Of a DNA stretch of 64,000 nt, positions 1 through 47,190 are shown in pieces. Under the pieces are notes generated by a model. It saw only the letters and a list, made by a program, of their open reading frames with translations, did no database searches and was not told where the DNA came from. The stretch comes from Euglena gracilis. Taxonomy: Eukaryota. Position numbers and translations under genes: made by a program. Location: positions 43,689,847 through 43,753,846 of the forward strand of contig CP154954.1 in NCBI GenBank assembly GCA_039621445.1, in the 5' to 3' direction. The first letter of the stretch is position 1; every line of letters begins with the position of its first letter.

Positions 1-24
1 GCTTCCTGCAGGCGACGTCTTCAG

Positions 25-3000
25 GTGATTTTCTGTCAGTTTGGCGCTGCGGGGGACTCGCCAGGGCGGGCCGCCGCCCTCGGGTCCCGCCGCAAGCCGC
101 TCACGGTGGAGACGCTGGTGGACTGCGTGCGGGCGTTCCTTACGCTGCCCGTCGAGGATGCCGCCCTGCTGGCGGTGTTCGCCGTGCCGTCCCACATCGT
201 GTTCCGCTGCTTCCAGACCCCCGGCTGGCTGGCCCGCGCCGTGGTGCCCGGCGGCCGGCGCGGCCCACCGCGTGGGGGGGGGGGGCACCGGGGCCGGCTT
301 TGGTCCAGCGACGCCGGATGGCTGGGGAGGAGGGGAGACTGACGAAGTGCGGTGTGGGGGGTTTGGGCTCCAGGACCAGAAAAAGTTGCTCTGGCCTTTT
401 CTGGCCGGTGTGCAATCAGGTGTCTTGGCTGGGCCCGGGAGGGCTGTGGCTTTCCATACAGGGGCCTGCAGGCCGTTGAAACCAGCGTCGTACAATGAGG
501 AAGTGCTGCGCACCGTCCACGTGGAGAGCACAGGGGCCATGCCTCGCAGTGGCCATGCCTCTTTCCCCGGCAGCAGTTCCCCAAAGGGAAGGTTAGTCAG
601 TTAGCAGAAGGTTGCGAAAGTACTTCAACAAATGGAAATTAATTTGATCACTTTTTTTTGACTTTCAAATGTAATGTTTCTAATTGCCTGCCTCCTTCCT
701 GCCTTGGCTCCCGTGGCCCCAATCTCAGACGATGTGCGGCGGGCTCTGGAGCACCCAGAAAACCGCACCCTGCGTTCTCTGCTGAAGGACTTCCTCATCG
801 ACACAACCAGGTCAATTCTTGGGGGTTTGGGAGAACGTGCAACAACCACGTTTTTGAACGAAGTAATGTTGAAAAACAGTGAAAGATATGCAAAATGCCT
901 GATTGAGGAGCATGTTGCTACCCCCCCCCCCCAAATCTCCCAAGCCACCACCTTCTGGACGATGAGGATTTCGCACTTATCCCAACTCGGGGAAATTCAA
1001 GATACTTTTTTGAAATCGTTTTTTTGGGGGGGGTCGTCACAGTTGTTTTTTTTGCGAAAACAAACACAGCTGTGAAAATGGGTCCCTCCCAGTTGCAAAA
1101 GGACTGTTTCACCTTGCGCTCTTAAACATTAACCCTCCATACTTTTCTTTTTTTACCGGGACACAGGCCCACCTGGAGAGCCCAGATGGGTCTCTAGGGA
1201 TGTGAATCATTTGGTTGAAGTTTTTTTAGGCCTTTTTTTGGGGTTTCCCATGAAAGTGGGCAGTTGCATTTAGTATCAACTTCGGAAGTTGGGGGGTGGT
1301 TCTTCAAACCTGTCAGCAGGTTGGGGTTGAGGGTGGCGGTCAAAGGTTTCCAGTGACAGGCTGGCCGACGCCACGTTGCAGCAGTGGCCTAGGTGCAATC
1401 AACCAAAAGCCTGCCGACTTCTTCTTCTTTGCCAACGACTGGCTGGAGGCCACGGTCCCCTTTCCCCTTTCTTTTTGCCCTCAGGGGACACGATGGCATG
1501 ACTTTCATCATTCATGGGTCGTCTTTTTTGTGCAAAAATCCCAACAAAATGGATTATTTTTTGGCAGGTGTCAGTTGTGCGTCTCATGCAGCGTCAAATC
1601 GTTGTGAATATTGGGTGGGTGGGTGGTGTGTTTTCACATCTTATGTTCACTGTCGTGGTTTCACTCAGGATTGAGGAAACTGCATTTTTTTGGAGCCTCC
1701 CAATCTCTAAACAAAGTCTGGGTTGGGCACCCCTACCTGTGGTACTGGTCAGCAACCAGTCGCTTCTGGCCCACCAGGAAGCAGGAAGTTGTGTGCCAGA
1801 AGAGAATCGACCGATGTGTTTCCCCACCAACCCCCACCCCCCCCACCTCCCCCGAGCGGGAAAAACACAGCTGGCCTCCTCATATGGACCGGGGGACCAA
1901 CCCAACCCATGACCTTGCGGGTTAACGTCCATGCCGGGTTTCGTTGTTGATGGCCCAATTGGGTCACTGACGCCACAGCAGGCCCCCACCCTGGGCCAGG
2001 CTGAACAGGAACCCCCGAAACCCCATGGGGGGGTCCGACCCCTGCCAGTACCGCCCTGCCCCCGAGGCGGCAGAGGGGCCCGTGCCGCGGAGCCGCAGCG
2101 GGTTCGTCCTGCCCCACCAGCGGCGCCCCCAGCTCCCGGCCGTGCTGGAGTCGCCCACCGCCGGGGGCAAGATGGTGGAGCCCCGCCTGACCCGCGTGAT
2201 GCGGGAGTTCCTCATGTACCTCGCCGAGCGTGGCAGGCAGGCCGCCGCAGCTGACTCTCCAGCGATGGTGGCTGGGCTCTTCCCCTCGGCCCTTCCAAAC
2301 AGTGGGATATGGGTTGGGGTTTGGCAGCTGGGAACGACACATCTATTTTTCATGCGCTGGAGTCCGTGCGATATGTGCTGTGTGCCTGGTTGCAGCGTGG
2401 GAGAGCCGCCTGGTCCCAGGGCCCGGTGGCCTGGGGGCGGCCTGGAGGACACGTACGTCACAATGCACCTCCCCAAGGTCGGCACCACATCTTTCCAGAA
2501 GACGTTCTACGGACTGTCACGTGCAGCGCCATTTCCCCCTCTTCATCTCGGGCTGGGCTTGTGACAGCCCCCCCCTCCCAACTGCTCGACGGGTGCCAAG
2601 TTCCGGGAACCATCTTTTTTTGCCTTGCCCTCCCCCCCCGCCAGGTTATTTGGGCACTTCCAAGGGCAAGGCCCCGCCAAGTTTCTCAGGGGGGCGGGGA
2701 GGTTTCCTTTGCTGAAATTCAGTGGCACAAATCACCAGAAGTTTTCGGACAATGTGACCCGTCGTTAGTGAGATTTTTTTTTAATGAATGTTCAGCCGAG
2801 CAGGCATCCTCCAAAGGGATCTCTGCCACCTGTGACTTTGCGCCATTTTGGACCCAAACAACCCCCTCCCCCCAGGTGGATGGATTGTCGTCCCAGGTCC
2901 CAAAACCCTCTGGTTCACACGCCAAGGGAAGGGCCCTGCTGCCAGAAGCGGTTTGTGCTGGCGCTGGACTGGCTGCAGAACCAGTTGAACTTCCTGCCCA

Positions 3001-6000
3001 GAGGCTTTTTCAAGGTTGGTCACCCATAGCGGGTGGAGTGGGTCCCCCCAGGTGGGTGAGTGACCCCCCCCCACCCCTGGGGAGGGGTGGGGGAGGTGTG
3101 CCATGGGAGGTTTGGTTACCGTGGCGAGCCGCAGCCGGCCGAATTAAGTTTTTTTTTCCTCTTGAACTTTTGCTGGCACAACTGGCTGCCGATCCTACCA
3201 CAGATGTTGCTGGAAATACATTGGTTGGAACTGCGGCTGGCAGCAGCCAGCCACATGAATACAACCAGAGAATTCCCTCAGAGTACGGGTCTTGTGATCG
3301 CAATGTGTGTGCAAACTGGCGTGATACATTGGCACTTCAGGGTACCAGCTACCCCAAAGGGGGTCTGAGCCAGGCTGTATTTTAGTCAGGTGCCGACCCC
3401 ACCCCGGGGGGGGGGGGTTGAAGTCCCAGTGAATATGGGGTTGGATAATTATTGCGAGTTGCTCCGAAGAAAGGGCCAGAAGCGGAGTGCAGCGCCAGGC
3501 CTTAAACCAGACAGAAACCGAAGTGCATCCAAGGGGTGGTGCCTGCCTAGGCAGGCACTCCAAGGCACTCCAAATCTGACCCCCCGGGGGGGGGTAGGGC
3601 ACACGGCCAAAAGTGCCCCAGCACAGACCCAGCGCCGAAGGCGCCGGGGATCCCAAAATGGCCTATTTTCAAAGGAATGTGCCTGGGCACAGGCCGAAAT
3701 CCGACCCCGGGGGGGGGGGGTAGGGCCTGCCTGGGCAGGCACTCATGGGCACTCCGGACCCCCCCTCCCCCCCGGAGTTGGTAAAAAACAGCCTGGTCTG
3801 AGCAAGGCAAAGAAGGTGCTGAGTGAGGGTCCCCCTCAAAAGCAACGTTGAGCAGGGCAGGAGGTTCAACTGTTTGAATGAGAATCTTTTAACCCGAACC
3901 CTACCCCTTCAAATAGTAACCTGATCAATTCCTGATTTGTTCAATAATTGGTTGGGCTGCGGCCAGCCGCGACCCAAAGGCGATCCAGCCGCAGAGATGT
4001 GTCAACCTGTTGGGTGTAAAAAGAGGTTGTCTGAAGCCGGCCCCAATCCAACCAGTCAGTTGAGATGAAGCAGCTTGGCCACAGCCATCTGGCTGTGGCC
4101 AGCCAAACATGATCCAACCTCCCATAGCAACCCTCCCCCCCCCCCCAGCGGTGGGGGATCAGGCCGAGCGAATACTCCTGGAGGGGCTTTCCATTCTCGG
4201 CACGAGGCGTTTAAATTTGACCCCAAAATTGACCCCTCAAAGGTCCCCTGACCCAAGGCCTCTCGCAGGGGTGAGTGGGTGGGTGGGTGTCAGGCACCTA
4301 TGGCCGACCAGGGCCGACCAGGGCCGACCAGGGCCGACCAGGGCCGACCAGGGCCGACTATGGTTTTCAGGACCCCCGTAGGTGGGGGTTCCGATCAGGG
4401 CCGACCAGGGCCGACCAGGGCCGACCAGGGCCGACCAGGGCCGACTTGCATGTGGTTGGCCGACCGAAGGGGAATGGATGAAGGAATTCGGCAGCTTTGC
4501 CTCTGGAACAAGCACCTCTGATGATGCTGGGCGATGCAGGGCGATGCTGGGCGATGCTGGGTGATGCTGGATTTTTGGAGACCAGAGGTGGGGTTCCGAC
4601 GCTGGGCGATGCTGGGCGATGCAGGGTGTTGCTGGGCGATGCTGGCATTTTTTTTGTATATTTTGAAGAACTAAACCCATTTTTGGATAATTTTCTCACA
4701 AATCTCCAGTTTTACACCCATTTTGGCCATTATGGATCAGTTTTTGCTAATTTGGGGGCTATTTGTCACTGATTGGGCAAATATTGGGCTAATTTGGGTC
4801 AATCTGAGCATTTTTTTATGGAATTTTGGCCATTTTGTGCCCTTTTGGTGATTTTGGGTCATTTTTCACAATCTTTTGTGGATTTTGTTGGCGTTTTTGG
4901 GTAATTTTTGGTTATTTCAAGCCATTTTAGGTCATTTTGGTTGCTTTTGGGGAGCCAATGGAGGCTTTATGGGGCATTTCCTTTTGACCTTGGCGAGACA
5001 ATTCAGAAGACCATTGCATCCCTTCACATTTTTTTCTGTGACGGATACCCCCACCACCGACTATTTGCCGACCAGGGCCGACCAGGGCCGACCAGGGCCG
5101 ACCAGAGCACCAAAATGGGAAGTGACCATAGGTGCCTGGTGGGTGTAGACCCTGGTACAAAAAAAACCCTCTGTTCCTGCCGCGGCTGGACGACGATGGG
5201 GATGGGCAGGAGGACTGTGAGCCTCCAGCCAGCATGGGGGAGGACCTTGTGGAGCACCTGCCCCCACCCCTGCCAGCGGTGGTAGTGGTGGTGGGGGGTT
5301 TGGGGCAGGACAGGGGAGGAGGGTGAAACATACTCCATCTGCAAGTAGCTTTCACTGCTGCCCAAAGAGGCGGGGGGGGGGTGTGGATTATGACTGGTTT
5401 CGGGTCACAGTCCCCCGCAGGTTTGGCATGCTGACTCTGAACACACCATTAATCCCCTCTTCCCCTTTTTTTCGACGCCATCCCTGGGGGAGGTTACTGG
5501 CTGGTTTTTTCAGGGTGACTGACAGGTATTGGGCCAGACCCTCCCGAGGGGCACCTGCCACCAAAGGCGCTGGGACTTTTTTTTTTGGATAAAATCTAAT
5601 GTATTTTGGGCCAAAAAAAATTGGTTTTGGTATTATTTTTTTTGGCCCAAATGACCAAAGTGACCGCCCCCCCCCCCCCCGAAAAGTGACTGACAGGTTT
5701 TTTGAAAGCAGAAAGTGACCCTCCCCCTCCCCTGGGGGTCGGTAAGCAATGGCATGGTTTGGACCCTCCCCATCTGGCTTTGCACGTGAACCTGCTCCTC
5801 CACCGACTCAGCGAAGTCCGGCTTTGGTGGCATTTCCCAGTGTTGACAGCTTTTTCTTGACAGCGTTTCACCCCCCCCCCCCCAAATTCTGGGTTTCCCC
5901 TGAACGTTGGAAGGTTTGTGTGAAGGCCCAGTGCTCGTCCCACAGCAGCGTGGGTGGGGAACAGGCTTCTGCTTAAGGGATTGCAGTCCCCCCCCCCCCC

Positions 6001-9000
6001 CCCGGGAGGGCTGGACTGCAGCTAGTCCAAATTTGGCTAGTGGGATTTCTAGCAGACCCCCCCCCCTGGGGGGTCTGCTAGAAGGGCTAGCTAGCGGATT
6101 TTTTTCCCCAGTGACCAGTGCGAAGCGCCAGAAATTTTTTTGGGACCCCCAAAAATGGCCAAAAATGCCCGTTTTTGGCCATTTTTGGGAATTCTTGGAA
6201 CAAAATCAGCCAAAAACCCATTAAAAACCTCATTTCCACCTCGGCGCGCAGCGCCGGAGGAAAACGTTTTTCCAGTTGGGGGGCCCCCGGACCCCCCCGG
6301 GGGGGGGGAGGGGGGTCTAGCTGGACCATTTTTTCCAGTGTCTAGCCGATTGGCTAGCCAGTCCCCCCCCCCCCCCCCGGGGGTCCTTAAGCAGAAGCCT
6401 GGTGGGGGAGGGACTGCAGGGGCGGGCGGCCATCCAGCACCTCCCGCTACCCCTTCACCACGAGCCCGCTCCTGACGGTGCTGAAGCGGCTGTCGTTCCA
6501 CATCATCCACCACCGCTCCCTGCCCGCCCCCTCCCCCTCCATGATGCTGGGCCAGGGCCCCCCTCATTCCGGTCTGCACCCCGGTGGCTGTTCCACACCA
6601 GGGAATTTCTTAAGCCGGAGGGTACCCTACCCCCCGGGGGGGGGTCCAGCCAGCCAGCAGCTCAAATCCAGTCAGCAGCCCAAATTCGGGCTGGGCCCCC
6701 CCCCCCCCCGGCCGGGGGTCGACTGAAATAAAGTCGGGTCCAGCCCGGCCGGAGGCCGGCAGCCCGGCCGGAGGCCGGGCCAGCCGGCCGAAGGCTGGGC
6801 CAGCCGGCCACAGGCTGGCCAGCCAACTGGGCTGCCCAGCTCACCTATCCCTGCATTTTTTCCCCTCACCACAGCTTCCTCCATCACAGCCCCCAGCCTT
6901 GATCTAGCTCCATCCACCAAAATGTCGAAAATGGCAAAAATGTGTTAGAAAATTTTGTTTTTCACCGACCCAGCCCAGCCCAGCCCCCTCCAGCCCCGGC
7001 CCCCCCTTCCCCCCCCACCCCCCCAGGGGGGGTCCAGCCAGCAGCTCAAATCCAGCCAGCAGCCTTTTTGCCAGCCGGAGGCTGGACCCCCCCCCCCCCG
7101 GGGTCCTTAAGGAATTCCCTGTTCCACACATCGGATCGCCCCCCCCCCTGTGTGCACTGTGGCTGTTTTTTTGGTGCCTTTTATCCCCTCTTCTGGCCTG
7201 GCGCTGTTGTTCGCCTCTGGCTCTTCCCCCCCCCCCCCGGCAGCGACGGCGGCTGCTCTGGCGGTGTGGGTTCGGGACTGGGGCCCTGTGGGGCGACGCA
7301 GAGGTCATCCTGATGCATGACCTCCGGATGCCACTGGCGAGCCTCAAGGTGGAGTCCGGCAACACGTGGCTGCAGAAGGTGGGGCTGTTCCTGATGGAGA
7401 GGATCCCCAGCTCCCACCCGCTGACCGGCAACTCGGAGGTGACCGGCATGAAGACCACCTACGCCCAGGATGGCTGCAGGGGGGGGGGGGGTTGGGGCTG
7501 GGAACTGCCATTCGCTTTGCCTTGCCCCACAGTGCTGTCACCGGGAAGGTTTCCAGAGAACCACAACGTTGCCACTCTTCCAGCCATATGGGTCGAACCC
7601 CCCCCCTCCCATTCCAACCAAACACTCTTTGTCTTTGAACCACCCCAGGTTCTTTCCCATGTTTTTTTGAAGGTTGCCTTTCTTTGGGTCCCCCCCCCCC
7701 CCCCCCCTTTAGGCAGCCAATCTCACACTCAAAATTTCTCGTGTTCCTTTCCACGTGCAAAGGAGCGCAAAGTTTGTTTTAAGGGGTCCAGGTATTTGAG
7801 GGTCCAGGTTCTTGCCCGCTGCTTTTCCTGTTTGGAAATTGCCAGTGCCAGGTGGTGTTCTGGAGACTGGGTGAAAGGTCCACCTCGAATAACATTAGAC
7901 GAGAGCCTCTTTGAACGACCTCAAACGACATTTGAGGAGGCTCTCGAGCCTCCTCGAACGAGCTCAAACGCCTTTCAAGCAGGTTCTCGAACCTCCTCAA
8001 ATGTCGTTCGGACACGTCCAAGGAGGCTTGAGAGGCTCCTCCTGCAAAACATCCTCCTCCCCTAACCCTGCCTGGTGTCTGCCTGCCCCTCACGTCCGAC
8101 CCACAACCCCAGCATTTGACCGATGGCTCAATCCGCGCATACCCTGGGGGGTGTCCATCCGCTGGCCAGCAGCACCTCCTGCCCGCAACGAGGCGAAGGG
8201 CCTCATTGGCCGCATGTCGGACGAGGAGATCTACGGCACGTTTGCCACCATCGTCGCCTCCGGCTACGGCAAGGCGGTGGGGGCGGACCTCAAGCACGGG
8301 GAGAGCAAGGAGAACCTGTACCCGTTCATCGCCACCATGATCCACTACCTCTCCTACTCCCCGCAGATGGAGGGGAGAGGGCGGGGCGCAGCGGGCCCCC
8401 CGGGATGGTGGTGCCGCCCTTCGCCCAGCGTGTGACCTTGTGTAACCTTGTGCCCATTCCACGTTGTGGCATCACATTGGCAGGGGTTAAGGCCGCCCAG
8501 CCTATCTGTGGTCAGCCATCTGTTGGATCTGGTCCAAGTTGATCATCTGAGTTGATCATTTTGTTTACATGGAACACTGTTTGCTGGGCCACCTCCACAC
8601 ACTTTCTCCCGAGCTTTTGGGATACAACGCCAGCCAGCATTCATTTCTTTGACATTTTTTGGGTTTAGGTTTTTTTTTATTGGATCGATTTTTTTTAGAT
8701 TTTTTTTAGATTTTTGGTTGTTTTTTTATTAAGAAATGGAGGCTTGTTGAAAATATGACCCTCATCGTGGCGTCATTTCAGGCCACCAATGCTGTAGAGC
8801 ATGCGCACCGCCCTCCGTTGCAACTGTTCCAAATCGTGCGCTCCCGCCAGCTATCGGTGCTGCAGGACCAATTGAAGGAGATGGTGGTTGAAGAGGACAA
8901 GGACTCCACGAAGATCAATGAGAAGGCACTGTTTCTGTCAATGCGCAACCAGCATTTCCTCACCCTCCTCATGGAGGCAGCCAGGGAGGCGCCATGGGGC

Positions 9001-11999
9001 ATGCGTATGAGACTGCCGCTGTTGATGCGTGTTCAGCCGACCGCCATTAAATGGGTCTGTATGAAAACGTCCTCCCAGAACACCTGGTTGACGGTGTATC
9101 GCAAAAAAGAATTTTTTTTTGACAGGCTGGACTCCAAATGGATAATGCAAACCTGCTTAACGCACCGACGCACAGTTGGGATTCTCTAGGCCACGTTTCA
9201 CTGAAATGCCTTCGCGGATGGTTAGTAACCTCAGGGACGGCGGTGCAGTTTGGGGACAGTTTGGCCAGGGATGCGCCAAGGCCTGCGTCGAGGGCCCCCC
9301 TGCCCCGTCTCTCTTGGGCTCCAAGGACATCGTGCGGGAGCTGCTGGATGCGGGGGCCCAGTCCAACTCCGTCATCCAGGAGTCCACGCTGCCCTACGTG
9401 TTTGAGTACCTGGTCGACCAGGGCTGCCCCTCCCTCCCCAATGGGGACACGGCTTTCCGTGCATTTGCGGAAGTCTGCAGTCAAAAAAATGTTCGAGCCA
9501 CAAAGTTGCAGGGATTCTGCCAGTTCTTGTGGGTGAACCACATGTGGAGATGGGGGGATTTCCAGTCAGTCAAATTGTCCAGCCTCTGAGCTGGACCCTG
9601 GAGTCGGTGTTAAGAAATGCCCTGCCCCTGTATGGTTGACATTCATGGGTTTTTAGGGCAGGCTGGTTTGCAGGACTTTCCCACCGGCGTTGCAAGAGAC
9701 CCTTGGGGGGGGGCAGGAGGGTCCAGTTGGTGAGGAGGGGGGGGCCTGCCCCTGAAATCCTGCAGCACCAGCAGCTGCCCCTCTTCCAGTGCGATGAGTG
9801 CGGCCAGCAGGTGGCGCGGGCGGACCGTGAGGTGATGCTCCAGAAGGGGTACGGGGCAGTGGCAGTGTGCGACCGCTGCGCCGCCCACACAAACCTTGGC
9901 AAGGGCCTCGGCCAGGTGTTCCTCCTGCCTCGCCAGCTGCTGCAGTTGGATGAGGTGAGTGGATGCATGGGTGGGTGGGTGGGTGTGTGTTGTGAGAGAG
10001 TGAGTGCGTGCGTGAATGTGTGTGTGAGTGTGTGTAAGTGTGTGTAAGTGCGCATGCCTGAATGAGTTTATGACTGTGAGCGAGTGAGCGAGTACGTGGG
10101 CGTTGCCGTGGGAGGTGGAAACGTGGGGTTGTGCTGTGTCCAGCCGCATCCGCGGCCACCGGCCAATGTGATGGCGCCTTAGCCAGCTGCCGTGCCATCC
10201 CATCGTGACTGATGTCGTTATTTGAGGACATAGCATCAAATTAAGATTTGCATACAAAGAGTTCAACCATTGCCACTCAACCTGTAAACCAACTGGTCTA
10301 TACGTGCGTGCATACCTACGTGCGGAGTTGAGTGAATGAGTGAGTGAGTGGGTGGGCATGGGTGGGGTGGGTGCTGGATGAGTGAGTGTGAGCGGAGTGA
10401 GTGTGAGTGCGCACGCGTGTGTGTGCAGGTGGGTGGGTGGGTGTATCTTAGGTGTGGTATTTTGGTTCGTTTGCACAACTGTGCAAAGTTCTCTCTATTT
10501 CACTTCCCCTGGTTTTTGAACTGCTGGTGACACACCGGCCCTGCATGTGCCTCATCCTGCCACGTCAGTCCCTCTCTGAGGATGCCCTGCTGGCAACTGC
10601 CAGAATTGCAATTGGGACTGTTGCCCGACCCACACGTCGCTTTGGAGCAGGGAGAAGGGAGGGCTCTGGCCTGGTGGTTGCCCCCCGCTGTGTGTGCCAC
10701 TGGGATTTTGCGCCTCATAAATCACACATTCATCACATGCGCGTCACATGCACGTCACGCGATATCATGCAGGAGCATTGCTGACCACTGTCGATGATTT
10801 TTTCCCCTTTCCCCAGAGTTCGCAGGCAAACGTCAATGATGGACGCTTGACGCTGATGCCACGGTGGCTGTTGGTATCCGCAATTCGCCACAGACACGCA
10901 GGTCCCCATCCTCTTTCATCTCGGCGTTAGTCTGTCCCATATGGACTGCTGGGCCCAGTGGGTACCACAAAGGGGTTTTTTTAGTCTTGGACCCCCTCCC
11001 CCGGGGTGGGGAGGGGGGTAGGGTGAGGGTCACTTGGACCCCCCTCCCCCCTGGGGGGGGGTTGGGGCTGGTGTATGTTTTTCGGCGCCGAAGGTGCCGA
11101 AAATTTTAAAAAGGTGCTATTTTTAGCATTTTCGGGTAAAAGTGGCTGGGTCCCCCGGGACCCCCCCCTCCCCCGGGGGGGGCCACCCCTGGGGGTGGGT
11201 GGGTGGGTGCCGACCCCCTCCCCCCTCCCCCCTGGTCTCAAAAAAACCCCGGGTACCACCTCCCCCTGGGGGAGGGGGCCGTGGCCAAAGCGACGGGTGC
11301 CAGGGAGTGCATCCTGGACTTCCTCGGGGAGGGGATGCGGCGGGAGAAGGTGGTGAAGTGCCCCAAGTGCCGCCACCCGACCACGAAACGCCACGTGGAG
11401 CGGAAGCCGAGCGAGACGCCGCAGCCGGCGGCGACGTGTGCACCGCAGGAGAAGGAGCAGGCTTCTTTTTAAGTCACCTGACCCCCCCCCCCCCCCCCCC
11501 CCCGGGGGAGGGGGGTGGGTGGGTGGGTCCTGGCTGGACCCCCCCGGGGGGGGGGGTTCGGGACCGGACCCCCCGGGGGGGGGGGGTCCCGCGCCAGAGG
11601 CGCTGGGTATACCTTTTCGGCGCGAAGCGCCGAAAATTTTTGAAAATTGCCTTTAACGGGCCCGATTTTGGGGGGGGGGTCCCCCCCCGGGGGGGGGTCC
11701 CGCGCCACCCTGGGTGGGTGGGGGGGGACCCCCCCTCCCCCCCCTCCCCCCCGGGGGTCTTAAAAAGAAGCCTGACAAGGAGGAGGAGGGGAAGGACGTA
11801 GGAGAGGGGGCGAAGAGGGACGAGGCGGATGCGAACGAGGACGACGACAACGAGGAAGAGGAGGCCAGCACCCAGGACAGCGACAGCGACAGCGACGACA
11901 ACCCGTGGCGGACGTGTGACGCATGCGACGACGTGCTGCTGGAGGAGGAGGGGCAGCACTGCCAGACGTGCAAGTGGGGCCGGGGCGACCCCAGCCTGG

Positions 12000-13115: not shown

Positions 13116-13863
13116 GCACGCACTCACGCACGCACGCACGCACCAAACTTTCATTAGTGCTCTGTGGAATTTTTTTTTCTGCACCGTGTGCGCCACGGCA
13201 CCGGAAACAGGTTTTTTTTTAGTCGTGGACCCCCCGGGGGGGGGTAGGGTGGGTGGGTCCGGCCGAGCCCCCCGGGGGGGGGGTCCCCCCCGGAGGGGGG
13301 TGAGATATACTTTTCGGCGCCGCAGGCGCCGAAAAAATTCTATTTTAGCACTTTTCGCGATTTTTCGGCCATTTTTTTGTGGGTCCCCCGGGATCCCCCC
13401 CTGGGTGGGGGGGACCCCCCATCCCCCCCGGTCTTAAAAAAATCCCTGACCGGAAATTTTGTGACCGTATGCGCCGCGGAAGATTTCTTTCTGTGCGCCG
13501 CTGCGCCGCGGCGTCGCCGCGTGCACCGCGGCAGCGCCGCATGCACCGTGGCATGGCCATCCCAATTATCCCGCGGGTGCGTTGTTGGTGCACCTCGGCA
13601 GCGTTTCAGGTGCGCCGCGGGTGTGCCGCGGCAAAAATTCGATTGTGCGCTGCGGAATTTTTTTTTGCGCCGTGGCAAACTTCGCCGCGGCGCACTAAAT
13701 GAAAGTCTGCCACGCACGCACGCACGCACGCATGCACACACGCACGCACGCACGCACGCATGCACACACGCACGCACACACGCACGCACGCACAGACACA
13801 CACACACACGCACACACACACACACGCACAACGCCCACACACACACACACACACGCACCACAG

Positions 13864-15178: not shown

Positions 15179-18100
15179 TTTTGAGTTTTGAGTTTTTTTT
15201 TTTTTTTGATTTTTTTTTTTTTTGAGTTTTTTTTTTTTTTTTTAGAGCTTTGAGGTTTTCGGTTTCTTCCGCAAGACGTTTTTTTTGCCAAGCACCATCT
15301 GAAGGAGAGTTCCCATTCGGGTCCTTTCGGAGCATGGCTTTGAAGAAGTGCTGAAGGCCCGCTTTCCAGATGTTTTTCCCGGGCCAGGGTCCATCAGGGG
15401 GGGGCAGGTAGTGTCGCTCCACTTCCCTCCAATGCTTCGGTGGTTGACCTCCCTCCTCACCGAATGCCGTTGCTTTCCCCCTGCTTTCACAACTGTGGTC
15501 TGGAGAAGGGTGATGAAAGGAGTCCAAACTCAAACCACAGGTGCCATGTTCTGCCTGCCATCTCCCAGGCAGTTCTCCCCCGGCTCAAAGTGTGGGTGAT
15601 GAATTCAGCAATTTGAAAATGGATGCATCTGCACCATTGATGTTCAAAATTGTCTTTTTTTTTTGGCCTCTTCACAGCCATCAAAATTCATAGAAATTTC
15701 CTTTAGATTCAGCACCAAGTGACAAATTTTTCAATGCGATTGTGCAAGGGGTGTTAAAACATGGGTTCTGCTGAATGGACTCCGAAGCGGACGAGTCAAC
15801 CAAGGCAGGCAGAAGGGGGACATTGCTGTTCAGCTTACATTCAGCATGATCCCATCGCTGAAACGTTTGGCATGGAGGCTGCCGGTCGATGCAACTTCGA
15901 CGGTCATACTGCTGGGACCCCCCCAAGGGGGTTCCCATTAGTATAACAGTATAACGGGGGTTCATTCATGGAGCAGGGTTAGGGTTACAATTTAGCCTGT
16001 TAGGCTTATTCGCAAAAACAGTGCCTGAATTGACAAAACTTAGTTAGACCTGGAGCCTGATTTAGGCCAAATAAGAAGGGCGGCTGAAATAAAAAGGGCT
16101 AAATTGTAACCCTAACCCTACTCCACAAATAACCCCTGTGAATCCACTGGGACCCCCTGGGGGTCCCAGTAGTTTTAGGCTGCCTCAACTACTTCTTTCG
16201 GGGGGGTGGAGCGCACACCCATTCCCCATTTCCTCTGCCCCCCCTCTGTTTTGCCAAGAATCCCCGTCCTTTCAACGTGTTTGTCAATGTTCTGCTTCGA
16301 TGTTTCAATGCTGGTCAACGTTCTGGCGACCCCCCCCCCCGGTGGTTGTCGATATTTCTGGCGCTGGAGGTGGGGTTGGAGGTGGGGTAGGTCAAATGCC
16401 GCCTGCTGGTCCCTGGCGCCACTTCCAGAGGCTGCCGGAGATCACCCCGCTCTTCCTCCACCAGCTGCAGGAGGCGGTGCAGGCCAAGGACCCGGCCCTC
16501 CCCGCCATGATAGACGTGCTGCCGGACTTCCGCCAGGAGTGGCGGCGCCCCCCCCCCCGCCCCCGGAAGAACTGCTGAAATGGAGAACCCAAGGAGGGGC
16601 CAGTAGCACATGTGGTGCTTTTTGGGGCCGGCGTACTGTGCATCGCCTGGAAGCTTCAGAGTTTGGGGTGCTTGTGTCAGCACATCATTCGAATTCCGGA
16701 ATCTAGCCATGTGGGAGACCACGTGTCGTCGAGACCCCCGTGTTCCCTGCTGAACAGGTTGGCGTCGTAGTGTCTTATTAGCCATTGGCAGAAAGAATGC
16801 CAAAGAATTGCAAAAAGTTGGCCAGCCCCGCGGCCCCGGGGGCGATGGTTGCCCTGGTCGGCCCACTTCTTCGCGGAGCTGGCGGGCTTCAAGGATGTGG
16901 TGAAGGAGTTCCGCGACTCCAAGCTGCACGACTTTGAGCTGGACCGTCCTTGGCAGTGCCTCTCAGATATTTTCTTCTCATCTGTGACCTGACCGACCCC
17001 TCCTTGGGGGTGGGTGTTGGAGGGACCGACTGGTTTTCCAAAAAAGTGACTGACTGCTGACTGGTTTCTGGAAAATGTAAATGACCACTCCCAGGAAAAA
17101 AAATTCGCTGGCACTTCGCTGGCACAATGCTTTTGATCAAAGCTGAAGGGGTGGGGAGGGGTGAGGGTGTGGCTTGGGGAACCCCAAGCCTTCCGGCCAC
17201 TGCCAGGCCCGCAGCTGAAGCGGTTCCGGCAGATGCGGGCGCACTGGCTGGAAGGGCCCACGTGCTGCAAGCGACCGTCCAGTGGGCTGAAGCCGATGGG
17301 CCAGTGCTTTTGTGGCTTCTCACACATCGCGGACCTCTTCTTTATGACGACCAGGCTGAACTTGACTGGGGGGGGGCAGGCTTCCTTTTAAGGAAGTTTG
17401 CACCCCCCTCCTTGGAGGGGGGAGGTGCCAGGGTGTCGTGGGGGGTCAGGTTTTGGGGTGGCAGTGCTGTCGCCCCCCCCCCCCCCCCCCGGCGCCAAAG
17501 GCCTTCGGCGCCAGAGCCCGAAAATGGCCTTTTCAAGGGAAAAGTGGCTTGGTTGGCATGCACCGGGGTCCAGAACCGACCCACCTGGGGGGGTGCGCAA
17601 GCACCCCTTTGCACAAGGCACTCCCCTGGTGGCCTGATGGGAGGGGGCCTGCCTGGGGAGGCAATCCAAAACCCCCACACGTCCAGGGGGTGGGGCACAT
17701 GTGGCCAAAAGTGCCTGGGAGCTCGGACAAGGCACTCCGGTGCCGAAGGGGCCAAAAGCCCAGGGCCATTTTTGGGCATTTCTTCCCACGACCAGGTCAG
17801 CCCAACCACCCCCCTCCCACCCAAGTTGGTGAAAGTCAGCCTGACGAGGATGGTCCGCCTCGGAGAGCCTCAGCCTGCCAAGGGTGTCTGCCACCCCCCT
17901 CCCCCCTCCCCTCTGAAGACCACCCGTTGTCCCCCCCCCATGAAGGGGCTGGGCACATCCTGACTGACAGCCCTGACACAGGCAGCTTCGGGAGATCACT
18001 GCATCGCATATTTTCGAAGTTTCCCATTCCGGGGCACTTGTCTGTCGGGACTCAGTTGTGGATGGATCGACTCTGGAGAATGATCAGCCAAAAAAGAGAC

Positions 18101-21100
18101 GAAATGATCCCACTCATTCACACCCCTCTCCCACGTATAGCCTCCCCCCTTTCAACTCACAACCTCCCCCCTGGGCCGACCAACCAAAGGACGACTTATA
18201 AACCCTTGAGGGGGAAAAAAGCCAACGATATTGTGGATGATTTATTCGGCTGCAAAACACCCAAAAACTGATTTTTGGCATTTTTTTGCGACCAACCATT
18301 GTTGAAAACGCCATTTTTGAAGAGTTTTGCCGAAAATTGCCAATTTGGGGGTTCAGGAGTCATTTTGGGGGGGGGTTGGATCCAGTGAATTTTCTTAAAC
18401 TTTTGTGACTGGGGTGGGTGGGTGGGTCCCGGCTGAATCCCCCCCCCCCCCCCCCGGGGTGGGGGTTGGGTGCCCTGCTGGAGGTGGAGTTTCCTTCTTT
18501 TCGGCATGAATTGCCGAAAGTTTTTGGACCCCAAAATTGACCCAAAAGTGGGTCCCCCCGCCCCGTGCTTTCCAGGGGGTGGGTGGGTGGGTTCGGACCC
18601 CCCCCTTGCCCGGGCCTTAAAAAAACAACCTCTGGTCGAAATTCAACAAACAATTCCTGGACTTAGCCCCCACTTAATACCCCCCCCCCCCGGCTGACCA
18701 ACCAACCTGATCCTGACCCCTGAGGGGTTGCCTTTCCCCATTTGAGGCCTTTTTGCCCCGGTGGGCGATAATGGCCCCCCCCCCCCAGGCTGCGTCCTTC
18801 CCCCCCGACGCCCGGACCGACTTCGTGGAGTTCATCTCCTGCGGCCTCCACAAGACCTGGCCCGACGACTTCTCCCGGTCGTACGTCAACCTGCTGCTCG
18901 CCCGCACCCGCATCTTCATCTTGCTGCAGCTCCTGCGGCCCAACTATGGCGAGGCCGCCGGGGACTTGTCCCCGGTGAACATCGCGCCTAGGGGCGTGCC
19001 GGAACTGCACTCGACGTCCAACGCGATCCCCCGTATGCAAGTGCATCTGTGTCGGGGGAAATGTGCATATGGTGCTCTTTTCAGGAATTTCGGCAGTGTA
19101 GAAGTCAAAGAACAGGACTTTACAGGCACTGAATAGTGGAACACCTGGAAATTCTGTGGGTCATACCCAACCCCCAGCCCCAAAGCCTCTGCCAGCCAAT
19201 GGGCCACAGTGATGGTGGGTTTCCACTGGCATGGCCACAGCCCATGCATCAGTGTGCCCCAGCCCACTCAGCCACCTCTGCTTCAGTGTGCTGTGTAAAA
19301 TTGAGGTCTGGAAACTTGAGGCATCGAATTTGTTTGGCAAAATGAAGCCTTCACTTGCAAACACAATTCCCAAACAAATCAACTATTGCCTAAATCTGAG
19401 TCTCAGAAAGGTCTGCTTAAACCTGGCATGTCGCCTCTTCCTTCCTGAGGTCGTGTGCAGCTTTGAGTGCTTTAACCTAAACTAGCAGCTAAACAGCTAA
19501 AGGAGTCCATAGCCGAAGAAGCCCCCCAACCACCTGCCCAGGAAACTGTCACGGGACAGGTGGGCCAGTCCCACAGACCCTGACAACTTCCCACACTGAC
19601 AAGGAGGGACCCTGACAGTTTCCTGGGAGGGGATTTGTGGGAAAATCAATTTAATATGGCTCTGACAAGTTGGGCGATACCAGGGACCCTGAAGGTTTCC
19701 CATGTGTGATCCTGACGCTGATGGAGGGCAAGTGTTAATTCCGAATCCAAATTAACGTGGGTTTTTGGCCGTTTTAAACCCAGAATAGACACCTTTGTCG
19801 AAGTCACTGCACCCTCGTTGATAGAGGTTGCTATCTTGCATTATCCAAAGATGGGCCCTGTTGATGGCAAAGAAATCAAAGATGGGTGCTGTTCACCACA
19901 GTGTGGGCTGCCTGCCTCGCCCCCGTGCACAAACGTTTGTTTTGGAAAGAGTCAGGTGAGGGAATGTCTGCTCTCACACAACTGGCCTGGTCCAAATACA
20001 CTGGTAGGAGATAGATACCCATAACCGCCACCCCCAAATATGACCCCACTGGGAATTATTAAAAGCCACTGAAAAATTATTGAAACCCTCTTTTGACACA
20101 AAATTGTCGAAAACGCTGATTGTTTTTGACCTCTGTGACCGAAGGATTTCAGTGTATACCAATTTACAAATGGTGCAAAGACTTGATTTTCTTGATTGGT
20201 TTTCTCAGGCCTGAGTCCATCAAAATATAACCCCCCCCAAATAACACCGTTCTTGGTTTCCTGCAACGGACCCAAAGTTAGACCTGGATTTTATCTTTTG
20301 GTGGGGTTTGGGGTAGCTAGTGTAACCGCTCTGATGTTAATTCAAAGAGCAGCATTTGCAGATTTGTTGGGGATTTATGAGGCTTCAGTTAGAGTGGTTT
20401 GGGGTTTCCTCCGCAGAGGAAAAGACGGACAGTTTGCGGGGTGGGGGGTGGTTGTAGGGTTAGGTGGCGGCCCCTACCATTGGTGGTGTACCTCTACACG
20501 CTGCAGACGCCCATCTACCAGAAGATGAACGCGGCGTTTTACACCCGCGACACCGCGGAGATTGCCAATTGGCGCCCCTTCAGCGAGCAGCTCATGGTGG
20601 CGCTGAACAAGCTGCCCGGCACGTGTTTCATGGACCCGCCTGGGCTGCTTTTTTTCGGAAGGTCGCACCCACGCGTCCGTTTGCAGGCCAGCCCCAATTT
20701 TGGCCAACCCAGCCACAGCAACGTCCCGGGGGGGGGGGGAGGTGCTAGGTTTGCATTCTGAAAAATTCTCCCTGGATGGGAGGAGATGAAATTTTTCCAA
20801 AGTCCTTTCTAGCAGGAAGCTATGCACATCCGGGAGCTCCTAAAGAATTCATGTGCAACTTGCACTTTTTTGCGTTGCAGCACATCCCCCCCGCCCACCA
20901 TCCCTTCCATCCATTCCTGCAACATTTGATGTTGATGGGGCAGCCGTTGGAAGGGTCTCAAGCTTAGGAGGCGTAAACTGCCCAAATATTTAAACCCCCT
21001 CGAAACGGAAAAGGAAGCGGAAAAACGCTTCCAAAAATGGTCTGTTTTTTTGAGGGATTTAGAAGAGGTTCGGATTTCGGCCGTTTTTGATTGGACGTTT

Positions 21101-24100
21101 GGCTTGCAGTAACGGAGTTTTAAAAACTCCAAAATCAAGCTAAAATGCCACTTAAATTTTGAAACTGAGTCTAAATGAATGAAAACCCTACAGAAATTTC
21201 AAAGACAACAATAAAGTGCAAATGCACACCTCATGCCAGCTGCGGCCAGAGACAGTAGACGGCGAAACCCCCTGCAAAGGGGGGAAAATAATAAATACAA
21301 AATATAGGAAGCGGTAAAAACGACATTCCGCTTCAAAATCACACACAGGTCACCAAAATCGACACCAGAAGAATCATGCCTAACGGAATACCAATGCAAA
21401 GTAAAGAAAATTTTCTAAAAACGAAAAGGAAGCGGAAAACCGCTTTAATGAGAAACTGAAAAATAATGTACCTCCCCCCCCCTTGTCCAACGACCGGCCT
21501 TGTCCAACGACCACCCCCCGGTCAGTAGCGATCTTTTTCCAGGTGATCTTTTTTCCAGACGTTCGCGTTCTTACCTCTGGCCTTTTCTTACAACTTTCAT
21601 GGCATATTTTGAACCTTTTCAACAAGTTTTTTTTGCCTGGTTTCCTGCAAATTGGCAACTTTTGGCCCTTTTTTTTGGCCATGTTTTGGCCATTTTGTGC
21701 CACTTTTGGCCACTTTTGGCCACTCTGGGCTGCATTTGGCAAAATAGGCCACTTTTGGATGCTATGAATGCATTTTTGCTTCATTTATGCCAATTTTTGG
21801 CTGCTTCTGGCTATTTTTTCGCATTTGTGGCCATTTTAAGCCACTTCTGACTGCTTTTATCCACTTTTTGCCCCATTTTGGCCATTTTGTGACCATTTTG
21901 TGACCATTTTGAGCACGCGGAAGAAATTTTTTTGACTCCGGTCTTGTCTAACGACCACCCCCCGGTCAGTAGCGATATTTGGCCAAAATAACGACCAACC
22001 CCCCGGTCAGTAGCGATAATTAGTGGTCGTTGGACAGGGGGGGAGCAATAAATCAAATAGAAGTTAATGCAATTCAAACATTGAATAACAATGCCCACAA
22101 ACATTCCTTCTGCATTTCGGAAGGGTGTGATGAATCGCACGAACTCAGCAGTAATCATTGGCATTAAGTTTAACTAGTGCACTCCCCAGAACACGTTACA
22201 GCCACAACAAATGGTATACAAATGTGAGACACAGAACAATACAGACCTGCAGTCAAAGTCCGCGCTTGATGTACGGGGCCAACATAAGCAGGTAGGAGGG
22301 AAAACCTGCAAAAAACGAACAGGAAAACGATGAAGCGGGTTTCCGCTTACTTAAATCAAAGAAGAGAAATTTAGTCCAATGCAAACTGTACTGTACTGGT
22401 CCGAAACTGCCATTGCCAACGTCACTGAACCAACTGAATGCAGAATGTAATGACATATGGTAAACTCGAACTACCCAACAAACGTGAATCCCGCATCAAA
22501 CAGTACTGAGAAGATGCATTATATCCCGAAGCACCAGCAAGTTGTGGATTTGTAACTGTCATTCTCAAAACAAAGGTCACAGCTGAAACAAACCCCACAG
22601 CCCCCAGTTCCGCAGCCATGCCAAAAACAAAACACAAAGGAAAGACACGGCGAAATGGGTGGGTGAGGTGTGGCGAAGGCGTGCGCATGGTTGGGGATTG
22701 GGTCCGGGTGTGGGTATGGGTCTGTGGGTATGGGTCTGGTCCGGTCCAGGTCTGGGTCTCGCTTCTCGTCGTCCACCACCATATCCTGGATGTTCTCCAG
22801 CGCAGACCGCTTCCTCGGCAACAGGGAGCGGCGCAAACGGGAGGCGTGGAACGGGATAACAGGTTTAATTACGTGCCATTGTGTTGAATCCCATCACAAC
22901 GAATTCACAGTGAAACGTGAAACACACTTCCAGTCACAAAAATTACTCTGATTCATTCATAAGGAAGCGGAAAAACGCTTCATCAAACAGAATTGATAAA
23001 TTACTGCCAACTGGACACATGACATAAGGAAAGAGATATCACAGACAATCCACCATTAGGCCGCTCCCTGTGTGTCGGGCGCTCCGGCGGTTCCGGAGAC
23101 GACTCGTAGGAGTGCCGGGCTGGCTGCTGCGAGCCCCGGGCGCCCTTCTTGGGCGTGTCCTTGGTCTTCTTGTCCGGCTTGTCCTTCGTCTCTTTCTCCT
23201 TGGGCTGGTCCTGGGACTGCTTGGTCTCCTTGGACTTGGACTCCTTCGGGTCCCGGCCGCCCTGCTTGGACGGGGGCTCCTCCTCCGTCGGTGGTGCGGG
23301 GGCCGTCTCCGTCCCCTTCGGGATGTACCCGGACACGTTCAGGGCCAGGTGGTGGGTGATCCTCAGGTGGACGTCCTTGGCCACAGGGCAACCCAATGTA
23401 ATTGCCCTGTCCGGAATCAGAAGGGAATGGGAATGCAGATACAAACAATAAAATTTTAAGCAAAGTATTCGAAGCGGTTTTACGCTTCAATTGCTAAATC
23501 CAGAAAAAATGACGCAGAATGATCCAGGTGAATGCCATTTGCGTTCGTTAAATGAATGTCAAACCATGTTAAATTGAAGATCGGTGAAAGTAAGAGACAG
23601 AAGCCTGGGCCACCCTGCACCCAGACCACTGGTGGTAGCCCGTCGGCCACCCTCATTTCGCGGCCGATGTCCTCCAGGCAGCGCTGCTGGGCCTCTGCGT
23701 CGTCGGAGTGGAGGGCCGGCACGCCCCACAGCAGGTTGATGGTGCTGCCCGCCCGCACGGCCAGCTGGGCGGACAGCACCGGCCGGGAACTCAGCACCAT
23801 CACCAAGTTGGCGGTGGCCACCTCCAGCCGCCGCAGGAACCACCAGACGACCTCCACAGGAACAAGATGGGCAACGTCGGGTGCACCGGGTTGCACTTCA
23901 AAACAGTCATCGCCGAAAACTGAACGAGGTTGGTTGACACTGCCCTCAACAACAGGGACACAAGTTCATGTTTGAAGCATGAAAACTGAAGACAACATTC
24001 TTAACTGGCATGCTAAGTGCAATCCGGGACCTGGTGCATCCCCTGCAAGGTGATCTGGCCGGGGTCCTCGAGGCTAAGAGACAGGGATTTTCTGTTTTGT

Positions 24101-27100
24101 ACTATGTACATGTATGCACTCAATATGACATAGACAATGTGAAAGAACTGCTCTCATTAACAGGAAGCGCTTTTCCGCTTCATCACAACATAAATCAAAA
24201 TAAAATAGATGGTGCACCTTCATGGTCTTCTTGTTGGTGGTGAACACGGCCAGGGTGCTTCGCGCCCAGATCCAGTCCGGGTCGGGCCCCGGCTGCGGGA
24301 TGAAGAGGACGATGTTCTTGCGGAAGACGGTCATCTCACTGGCCAGCATCTTCGTCAGCCGCGCTTGGAGATCTCGCAGGTCGATCTCCCTCCCGACAGC
24401 GATCATGGGTACCCCCGTCAGCATGAGCCTGAACACCTCGGTATGCAGGCTGTCATCGTTGGCGAACTGCTGGGGCTCCACTTCCATCACCACGGCTGCC
24501 AGGTCCAGCAGACGGAGGTCCTTCAGCCAGGCGTTGCCCGTGGACTGCATGGGCACCACGTGGATGAGGCCGGTCTTCGGTTGGTCGTGGAGATCTCCTG
24601 GGTGCTGGACACCTCCTCCTCCGGTTTCTTTGGTTTGCCTTGCGTTGACGGTTCATGGCCAGGCAGGCTCATGCCGTGCAGGTCCAGGGTGCCGAAGACG
24701 CCCCCGACCTTGACGACGGGCTCCATCACTGGGCCCAGCAGCCGCTGCCTCAGACCCTCGTACAGGGGGTCGGCCCACAGCGGCGCGCGTCGTACCACCT
24801 CGATGGGCGGCCATTGCCGGGGGACAACTGACATCGCATCAGAGAGGGGTGTGCATGCATTCACTGGGAGGGGTGCATTCATTCCAGGCTTTTACAAATC
24901 AGAAGTTGTTCCCCGCACAGGGGGCTTCGGGCGACCACCTCCACTTCACTCCGGTCATCGGCACCTTCACGTGCTCCGGCTGCAGGGCGGTCTCCAGCGC
25001 GGCCACCTGCGCCAGGTCCTCTGCAAAAAGAACACAGAATGACAAAGTGAAGCGGAAAAACGCTTCATGACAAAGTCTGCATTTTATCCATGTAAAGAAC
25101 CAGTTAGTTAGCCAGCAGTTCTTAGACGTGCACGCATATGATTACTGCAAATAATTAAACAGCACACACTTCTGGTCGGGTGAAGAACATCGGCATCCAG
25201 CTCCGGGTGCTGCAGCAGCCACGCCAGGTCCTCCGGCGCACCAACTTCGCCGTCTCCTGCCTGGCAGCAGACTCCATTTTGTATTTTGGATGAGTCGGAG
25301 AATACTGTGAACACAATTATACATTAAAAATGAAAATGTTCATGTATGAAGCGGAAACATGCTTCCTGTCTGGTGTGAATGAAATTTTCTTTTTTATTTT
25401 CCGGATTTACAACCATCCGCCAGATGAGCACGACAGAATGTGGAGTCTGGACCAGCCGCTGGGTGGTGGGCTTGGATTTCTCGTCCAACATCACCTGGGC
25501 CAGCTCCGCGTAGTCGTCTGGGTGGTAGATGGCCTCCAGGCACTTGAACGTGTGTGGGGACACCCGGTCCCGGCCTCCATCCTCTTCACCACCTCGACGG
25601 CCTCGGTCCCACTCTGCAGCACCCACTCCGTGACGGGGATCATGGCTTTGACCCACGTACCCTGAGAAGGGTAAAAATTAAAAAGGGACGATAATGAAGC
25701 GGGAAAACGCTTTCATATGCGATCGCATTTGAAAACACCAACACCAAACTGACTGCATATCAACTGAATATGCAAACTGAACATCAATCATTAAACATCA
25801 TATAATCATTCTGCACTGCACAATCATCCTTTGGTGACAGAACATACCAGGGCACCGTCCACGGTCTCGCGGCATCCCGTCTTGCTGTATACGTTCTTCA
25901 ACAGCTCCGTCTTGGTGGGGTTGTACGCCACTCCTTCAGCCTCGGCAATCTCCCGGTTGTGGGTGTCCTCCTTCAGCAGCCACTGCAGGCGACCCGCCAA
26001 CGTCATGTCCATGACATTGCCGTCCATGGCCTGCAACCTGCCGGCCAGCTGCTGGCGCTCGATGATGCTGGTGCTCTCCTTCACCACTTTGCACCGGAAC
26101 TTCTCCGTGAAGGCTGGCGGCCGCCGGGCATCGGCGACGGCGGCGTCGGCAATGGCCGACGCGGCCAGGAAACGATGTTGACCACTCAGGATGACCCACT
26201 TCCCCGTAGCTGCGAAGAGGGGAACACATTCAGAAACCATCCATTGCCCCACACAACGTAAAAGAAATTGCTATGTGATGAACCTGAGAAACACATCAAT
26301 TATGTCCAAAGTGCCAACCCACTCCCGTCAAGCAACCAATTTGAACTGAGGGGGTCTGATCCGCAGGAACGACAAACACAATATGGAGGGGGCTGGTGGA
26401 CACCTCTCTCCGGCCACACCGTCAGGACCAGCTCCTGCGGCGGGTTGTTCTTCAGCTCTTTGATGAGGTCGTTCACATGCTCCTGACGGGGCCGCCGGAC
26501 CTGCCCCCGGCTCAGGTCAACGTCCAGGACCAGCTGCCCGACTACAGGGTTAGTTAAGATACACTTCTTTTGTGGGAGAAATAATGTAATTCATAACAAT
26601 GAAGCGTGTTTCCGCTTCATTAGTTGACCAAGGTGATTTTTTATCTGTCAATGCTTCTGAATGTTAGCTTCATTGGAGAATGTCAACAGAAGTCTTTCCA
26701 CTGAGGGTAATCTTGACACACTTACCAAACGAAATGAGTTGATTCACCAAAAGGAACCACAAATCTAACCCTGCTCCCTTTGCAGCCACATCTCCTCGTC
26801 TTCCAGCAGCTTCGGGATCGACTGTCCCGTGGTGTCTGCCTTCGCCAGCTTTTTCGGATGCATGTGTACTGGTCTGCGAAGAGAAAAAAGAAAAATAACC
26901 ATATAATCATCCAGTCTGTGGAAAATAAGGCTGAGATGAATGGATTTGCATCATTTATTTCCCAAAAAGAACTCACAAAACACAGCCAAATGGGTTTTTT
27001 TTGATTTTGCTTGCTGTTTGCAAAACACTCTCCATTTTGCACTTCCTACCTGAACCAAACAGCACCATGTTAAAAAAAACCAACCCTTTTCTCGTTGTCT

Positions 27101-42233: not shown

Positions 42234-42952
42234 CAGGCTTTTGCTTAAGGGATTGCAGTACCCCCCCGGGGGGGGAGGGCTGGACTGCAGCTAGTCCAAA
42301 TTTGGCTAGTGGGTTTTCTAGCAGACCCCCCCCCCCCCCCGGGGGTCTGCTAGCAGGGGCGGGGTTTTTTTTAATTTTGGACCCCCGGGGGGGGGGGGAG
42401 GGGGGGGGTAGGGTGGGTGGGTCCGGCCGAGCCCCCCCCCGGAGGGGGGTGGGATATACTTTTCGGCGCCGCAGGCGCCGAAAAAATTCTATTTTTAGCA
42501 CTTTTCGCGATTTTTCGGCCATTTTTTTGTGGGTCCCCCGGGACCCCCTCCCCCCCCCGGGGGCCCCCCCCCCCCAGGGGGTGGGTGGGGGGGGGGGGCC
42601 CCCCCCTCCCCCCCGGTCTTAAAAAAACCCCTGAGCAGGGCTAGCTAGTGGAAATTTTTTTCCAGTGACCGGCGCGAAGCGCCGAAAATTTTTTGGGGAC
42701 CCCCAAAAATGGCCCAAAATGCCCGTTTTTGGCCATTTTTGGGAATTTTTGGAACAAAATCAGCCAAAAACCTGTTAAAAACCTCATTTTTCCTCCGGCG
42801 CTGTGCACCGGAGGACAATTTTTTTTCCAGTCCGGGGGACCCCCCCCCTGGGGGGTCTAGCTAGTCCACTTTTTCCAGTGTCTAGCCGATTGGCTAGCCA
42901 GTACCCCCCCCCCCCCCCCCCCCCCCCCCGGGGGTCCATAAGCAAAAGCTTG
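42234..42952. mobile_element. hAT-like MITE with nested MITE at 42360-42633
   Basis: Perfect TSD TTCCTCAC. The nested element has TSD AGCAGGGG/AGCAGGGC, and the empty site is seen in the 5962 copy. Confidence 0.85.
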
Positions 42953-45803: not shown

Positions 45804-45812
45804 GCCCCCGCC

Positions 45813-47154: not shown

Positions 47155-47190
<36 letters not shown>

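Follow-up and report, generated by a model that had tools for sequence, protein, structure and literature searches.

MITE-like CAG…CTG insertions and non-conventional splicing in Euglena gracilis: do spacers of 3 and 5 nucleotides add up to one 8-base target duplication?

Non-conventional introns of euglenids lack GT-AG ends and have paired ends, with CAG at +4, CTG at -8 and a purine at the next exon base (PMC12501133, PMC3935182, PMC4770533). They account for 71.8% of the introns of Euglena agilis (PMC12501133). The locus described here raises the question of whether such introns can start out as DNA transposons whose removal by splicing takes along exactly one of the two copies of the target. 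It lies in a stretch of 64,000 nucleotides (nt) of Euglena gracilis (GenBank assembly GCA_039621445.1, contig CP154954.1, positions 43,689,847 to 43,753,846 of the forward strand), called the window below and numbered from its first letter. A preliminary description of this stretch had proposed that elements resembling hAT MITEs (miniature inverted-repeat transposable elements) interrupt coding sequence at two places, and probably at a third, and act as introns. According to our analysis, MITE-like CAG…CTG insertions are spliced by the euglenid system with loss of one 8-base duplication, a reading to which we give a probability of about 0.8.

The splicing code tested by knock-in is N3-CDG…CH'G-N5-6|R, in which the spacer of 3 nt is strict, that of 5 nt is best and a purine is preferred at the next exon base (PMC12501133). 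For an element with CAG…CTG ends and an 8-base duplication, spacers of 3 and 5 nt would take out the element along with 3 bases from the end of the left copy and 5 from the start of the right copy, so that one copy of the duplication remains.

Dispersed elements with a fixed 8-base duplication

Across the whole window, 262 CAG…CTG pairs lie 50-4000 nt apart and have pairing at 11 or more of 14 terminal bases. The 8 bases flush with the two ends were identical at 7/8 or 8/8 positions in nine pairs, at 6/8 in none and at 0-5 in the other 253. Nine is far above the 0.12 pairs expected from the binomial distribution and above permutation (mean 0.35, maximum 3 in 2000 runs), and for repeat lengths of 6, 7 and 9-12 no pair among the 262 had one mismatch or fewer. 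The nine pairs are 2999-5173, 3371-3795, 4291-5138, 5962-6401, 6599-7121, 11458-11774, 13208-13448, 43794-44032 and 50008-50346. They include the three elements of the preliminary description, which were found again with the same ends: 3371-3795 (13/14 bases paired, 8/8 duplication), 11458-11774 (14/14, 7/8) and 5962-6401 (14/14, 7/8).

Several of the nine were grouped into families by BLAST, which added three decayed sisters, each with its own 7-8/8 repeat. The ends of these BLAST-defined sisters were set by means of a scan for 7/8 repeats at termini of any kind; it gave at least 531 pairs, mostly due to chance, and served no other purpose. Sister copies differ in their flanks, and each flank is duplicated, as in the elements starting at 5962 and 42234. 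Sequences with mixed flanks stop exactly at the element starts 3371 (15 reads of the RNA run X24) and 6599 (13 reads and 15 contigs), as expected if the families are inserted at many other sites. The elements are thus dispersed inverted-repeat elements with an 8-base duplication of fixed length, and most copies are passengers inside introns.

Two exonic insertions in the host gene

Reads and contigs were mapped onto positions 1-11995 from four sources, namely the raw RNA runs X21 and X24 (about 5-6% of each), the contig set X1, presumed to be RNA, and the contig set X20, whose kind is unrecorded. Evidence was drawn from these four alone, runs with only small shares of the sequence being left aside; among the runs listed as containing it, none is on record as RNA. 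Fifteen joints were listed, with 1271 weaker ones besides; ten of the 15 belong to one gene, and two further joints of this gene occur in X1 with letters between the joined parts. The joints from 3415, 4873, 4874, 6758 and 7709 were rejected as paralogue artefacts, lying within repeats or C-runs and being present in X20 too. Because X20 has the joined form at only 1/10 gene joints and its other contigs run through the introns, it behaves as DNA. The host gene (2943-11978, + strand, 11 exons in this span) begins before the window and continues near 14200, as indicated by the joints and by a 4259-nt X1 contig, and the frame of the 11 exons comprises 470 codons without a stop.

The cleanest case of an element removed as an intron with exactly 8 extra bases is the outer element 2999-5173 (+ strand), which the preliminary description had missed. 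It measures 2175 nt including nested insertions, lies in a coding exon and forms the core of intron 2996-5178. The two copies of its target duplication, 2991-2998 on the left and 5174-5181 on the right, are identical (8/8), and position 6 of the right copy is a G, the predicted first exon base 5179. The RNA joint 2990→5174 skips 2183 nt (2175+8) and can slide over 8 letters; it is carried by 11 reads at 11 different starts in X21, two reads in X24 and one X1 contig, and by nothing in X20. None of the 9 equivalent cuts gives a GT/GC…AG placement. One X20 contig carries the variant letters of positions 5217 and 5227 and stops 58 and 68 letters from them, about 15 nt inside the right end of the element, and an X1 contig with the same variant letters has the joined form. 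In this variant haplotype, then, the DNA has 2999-5173, and the RNA lacks the element plus one repeat.

The outer element was later enlarged by nested insertions. The element 3371-3795, which had been described as interrupting coding sequence, lies inside the skipped 2991-5173 and is not an intron of the mature RNA: the junction 3367/3801 predicted for it is absent among the 15 joints listed, and its removal with 3 and 5 nt, which was to restore the frame, runs into a stop within some 17 codons when the upstream open frame is followed. Taken alone, the inner 3368-3800 fits the splice code, so that a stepwise removal is possible. A second nested element, 4291-5138 (13/14, 8/8), and a probable middle layer at 3131-3960, with uncertain ends (10/14, 7/8), are also present; the latter is related to 50008-50346, with 73% identity over 3843-3955. 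The core of the outer element is itself 68% alike to 18439-18600. As a side observation, this 2.2 kb intron is nested at least three insertions deep.

The other exonic insertion, 11458-11774 (+ strand, 317 nt), is the core of the likely intron 11455-11779; 16 of its terminal bases pair, and in a fold of the whole intron the 3- and 5-nt ends are left unpaired. Here the preliminary description was right that coding sequence is interrupted and that joining restores the frame, the skip of joint 11451→11777 being 325 nt (317+8), and the predicted junction 11454/11780 falls within the 6 letters over which this joint can slide. The joint occurs in eight reads of X21, two reads of X24, X1 at a depth of 422 and one X20 contig at a depth of 35.8, with 55 letters on its shorter side. 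The two copies of the duplication mismatch only at position 2. There the right copy falls within the intron, and it is the left copy's letter that the joined form retains, as the model of cuts at 3 and 5 nt predicts. The X20 joined form is read as an empty allele, or a near-identical copy, and is good evidence for recent gain; by the same token it weakens the RNA evidence for splicing at this site. Retention of either exonic element brings an in-frame stop within 10 codons, for 11458-11774 six codons in.

Both exonic elements read N3-CAG…CTG-N5|purine with paired ends and a G at the first exon base, in a register picked by the code among the equivalent cuts. GT-AG ends are missing from all 12 introns shown by RNA, each of which has paired ends; the junctions 2235, 6550 and 9416 and the slidable ones were placed using the published code and allele differences, so that the fit to the code is partly by construction. 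Besides, intron 5261-6432 (11 reads, no slide) fits no published motif and pairs best with a 7-nt 3' spacer. Other variant ends are GAG/CTC with a 6-nt spacer at 8374-8821, CAG/CTG with a 4-nt spacer at 8979-9306, and CAC/GTG with 14/15 bases paired at 10628-11304. The 11 exons of the gene in this span, all on the + strand, are 2943-2995, 5179-5260, 6433-6549, 7295-7462, 8187-8373, 8822-8978, 9307-9415, 9754-9909, 10595-10627, 11305-11454 and 11780-11978; its single exons gave no Pfam family and no homologue. Variant letters occur over 1-11995 in X20 and X21, with a share of 219/369 reads and about 0.3-0.9 by site. Together with steps of X20 depth near 36 and 105 this would fit three haplotypes, a hint only, contig depth being a poor measure.

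The 3+5=8 geometry and competing explanations

The data would be accounted for if non-autonomous cut-and-paste DNA transposons, MITE-like and probably hAT, with CAG…CTG ends, insert and duplicate 8 target bases. After insertion into an exon, the paired ends in the pre-mRNA would serve as the signal for non-conventional splicing, with cuts 3 nt before CAG and 5 nt after CTG. Because the spacers sum to the length of the duplication (3+5=8), splicing would take away the element with one copy of the target and restore the exon, given a purine at position 6 of the target; those parts of the duplication that lie within the intron would then drift and the repeat fade with time. The preliminary description went too far in taking any such insertion to be scarless, since target position 6 is C or T in 3/12 elements (4291, 6599 and 42234); none of these three is seen in exons, in what are small numbers. 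Its statement that 3+5=8 explains the geometry holds in so far as the published spacers remove exactly one duplication (PMC12501133); it goes further than the data in making the duplication the origin of the geometry, older introns having no residual repeat.

Parts of this picture are already in print. A MITE origin of euglenid non-conventional introns was proposed in 2014 (PMC3935182), a strain-specific new intron with an 8-nt direct repeat was read in 2016 as break repair (PMC4770533), and 'TSD-like' (target site duplication-like) repeats at intron junctions are mentioned in a review (PMC11282704); further related literature is PMC11170887 and PMC12621601. The link between spacers and duplication was not found in the literature searched, which comprised few subscription papers, no figures and no bioRxiv supplements, any of which could state it; a term search of the main text of PMC12501133 found none of the words TSD, duplication, hAT and transposase. 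The junction tables in the supplements of PMC4770533 and PMC3935182 were read by eye. An exact 8-base repeat flush with paired ends is found in three published introns of three genera. These are gapC intron 4 of E. agilis, where the repeat is exactly flush (PMC4770533), tubB 12 of Lepocinclis spirogyroides, with ends like those of the CAGG-poly-T elements in the window, and tubB 13 of Monomorphina pyrum, whose position in Euglenaria has 3/8 (both PMC3935182). In the 2014 tables, counted with one row per species and position and with the C/I row excluded, 2/26 non-conventional rows have the exact flush repeat and 0/26 have 6 or 7 matches (PMC3935182). As the published ends were fitted to a consensus by their authors, the 5|3 split is by construction, and the length of 8 is not (PMC3935182, PMC4770533).

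Several findings weigh against the reading of these introns as spliced insertions. The mRNA cannot reveal the position of the cut inside the repeat. The best-pairing 3' spacer is 5 nt in 8 of the 12 introns, and 4/12 pair best with another length (6 nt in two, 4 nt in one, 7 nt in one). The 10 older RNA-shown introns match at 30/80 positions, compared with 29.2 when permuted (p=0.47), and with no residual repeat in excess nothing in the window indicates that older introns arose as insertions; decay could account for this. The full YARNG motif is found at 3/9 element starts (fifth base G at 2999, 6599 and 43794; CAG is in 9/9 by search design). Among 26 window frames no transposase was detected with Pfam, pyrophosphatase being the sole named family besides two matches below cut-off. 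At 11458-11774 the empty allele comes from one contig of the single run X20, and the 8 reads over the joint compare with 11.2 expected if all alleles are joined and, if only the empty allele is, with 5.6 for an empty share of a half and 3.7 for a third, neither model fitting more than slightly better than the other. It could accordingly be argued from the joined form in X20 and from these counts that the joined RNA stems solely from the empty allele, with the filled allele retained, degraded or silent, or else that the empty form reflects precise intron loss. We consider this unlikely. Window-type letters make up 44-71% of the reads in the flanking exons (7/16 reads upstream; 13/20, 13/19 and 17/24 downstream) despite the stop on retention and the reported decay of stop-bearing retained RNA (PMC12501133), which favours splicing of the filled allele; the X1 depth of 422 over the joint is the highest of the gene joints (209-252 at the others); and intron 11455-11779 has all features of the code. 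The filled allele is thus probably spliced too, and near-perfect ends in a dispersed family favour gain over loss. A broader objection is that the splicing code is older than the elements or independent of them, and that CAG-ended 8-base duplicators are passengers that merely fit it, so that 3+5=8 would explain why copies are harmless and not where the code or most introns come from. This is consistent with what is seen at the locus and challenges the general claim, and we regard it as a serious contender, somewhat short of probable. The missing residual repeat in the older introns speaks for it, as do the spacers of 4, 6 and 7 nt, the 24/26 published rows read by eye without a full repeat, and the tolerance of the code, which accepts spacers of 5-6 nt and CGG/CCG variants and splices artificial 50-nt introns (PMC12501133). 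It is less easily squared with exact flush repeats in three genera, with a knock-in optimum at exactly 3 and 5 nt (PMC12501133) and with the pyrimidine|purine consensus common to both junctions (PMC4770533), the expected remnant of a duplicated target, though the donor-side base is dispensable for splicing (PMC12501133).

Scars of double-strand-break repair around filler DNA, which is how the authors themselves read the one 8-nt repeat (PMC4770533), or a spread of introns as RNA by re-insertion, for which the full-length circles, not lariats, formed by excised introns could be invoked (PMC11282704), appear very improbable here. A single fixed length lies flush with the inverted repeats in 9/9 pairs, the families are dispersed with exact ends, most copies sit inside introns, and sisters do not share the 3- and 5-nt flanks that an RNA intron copy would carry. 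As to the mobiliser, hAT is probably the best label, with membership judged from sequence features. The 8-bp duplication, the short terminal inverted repeats (about 11-17 paired terminal bases, 10-25 bp being usual for such MITEs), the YAR start and dispersed copies with different flanks all point to it. The target preference may do so as well: T at position 2 or A at position 7 is found in 12/24 places (p=0.004, post hoc in a small set, with C3/G6 equally enriched at 13/24), resembling the nTnnnnAn of Ac-type hAT elements (PMC8961557). A different 8-base duplicator such as Merlin is quite unlikely to be responsible, even though E. gracilis is reported to have two Merlin families that duplicate 8 bp (PMC8101967), no transposase was found in the window and a GG-ended element at 60662-60945 has an 8/8 duplication. 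Merlin ends start with GG and measure at least 24 bp (PMC8101967); the elements considered here start with CAG and pair over shorter ends, a GG start being seen only at 60662-60945, and their target preference resembles that of the Ac type. The element 60662-60945, an inverted-repeat element with a long internal palindrome, is Merlin-like by its ends.

If the spliced MITE-like insertions are as described, the equality of duplication length and spacer sum makes the MITE hypothesis testable in numbers, by repeat length, register, the fading of repeats with age and empty alleles, and sets it apart from the published idea of break repair. DNA transposons would then have given rise to introns in an introner-like manner, by a pathway that is apparently not spliceosomal. 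Two exonic cases with RNA, one of them with an empty DNA form, support the long-standing proposal that introns of this odd kind start as transposons, and as a general origin of non-conventional introns this is plausible. We put forward only tentatively that the second splicing system is a transposon-neutralising device fitted to hAT insertion, that hundreds of thousands of non-conventional introns of photosynthetic euglenids are aged hAT insertions, still forming, as an allele segregating empty in this gene would show, and that the 3/5 code is a fossil of the staggered cut of the transposase.

Known systems, other copies and neighbouring features

Compared with the euglenid introns in the published accounts (PMC12501133, PMC3935182, PMC4770533), those described here have as their core an element with a fixed 8-base duplication, relatives in the window, RNA joints and, at 11458-11774, a DNA version that is empty. 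Introner elements, known from Micromonas and other eukaryotes, are likewise short non-autonomous DNA transposons that are cleanly spliced, the target duplication restoring the exon; they use the spliceosome, with GT or AG taken from element or duplication (PMC11282704), whereas here the cuts, as placed by the code, fall at fixed distances from paired ends and there is no dinucleotide signal. Two exonic copies lie in the 12 kb of RNA-mapped window. In common with hAT-superfamily MITEs (PMC3942097, PMC3014272, PMC8961557), the elements have an 8-bp duplication, inverted ends that are short, a YAR start, no coding capacity and nesting, and a weak nTnnnnAn preference may be shared too; they differ in the lack of a partner transposase in the window, in having G as fifth base in only 3/9 starts and in being GC-rich with long C/G runs. 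The Merlin elements of E. gracilis share the 8-bp duplication in a euglenid and differ in their GG ends, which do not fit the splice code, and in longer inverted repeats (PMC8101967).

Among the passengers, the element 5962-6401, which the preliminary description had also counted as interrupting coding sequence, lies inside intron 5261-6432, skipped by the RNA joint 5260→6433, and none of the joints listed falls at its own ends. Its sister 42234-42952 is 81-87% alike (13/14, with a different 8/8 duplication) and holds the nested 42360-42633 (12/14, 7/8). The element 6599-7121 (13/14, 8/8) lies inside intron 6550-7294, where X1 has the joint 6543→7295 with 6 letters between. A decayed sister of the 13208 family, 10970-11252 (11/14, 7/8), is inside intron 10628-11304 with the RNA joint 10626→11304; related elements are 13208-13448 (12/14, 8/8), probably in the next intron beyond the RNA-mapped 1-11995, and 43794-44032 (11/14, 7/8). 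The element 50008-50346 (11/14, 7/8) is, by position, inside an intron of a pyrophosphatase gene (PF00719 on the flanking frames); junctions of this gene, which lies beyond the RNA-mapped stretch, were left out of account. It and 3126-3960 are sisters with an apparently common GC-rich palindromic target, which suggests a family-specific site preference. The CAG…CTG element 17352-17843, with a 5/8 repeat between two open frames, is possibly an older exonic insertion.

Scanning for hAT protein motifs yielded a single match in the window, in a frame full of stops, and pattern scans of metagenomes for the element ends gave no match. Neither 27233-28123, for which an Atlas search returned no usable match, nor 24077-24652, with 7 unnamed relatives, is identified as a transposase. 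The frames 20393-20761 and 34266-34826 resemble ADP-ribosyltransferase domains and have no Pfam match. Two copies of a long unit, 20963-30647 and 59831-63980, are 73-79% alike and contain open frames of unknown family, possibly parts of a large mobile element. Finally, the gene at 45800-52450 has inorganic pyrophosphatase domains in tandem, divided by introns, with two frames matching PF00719.

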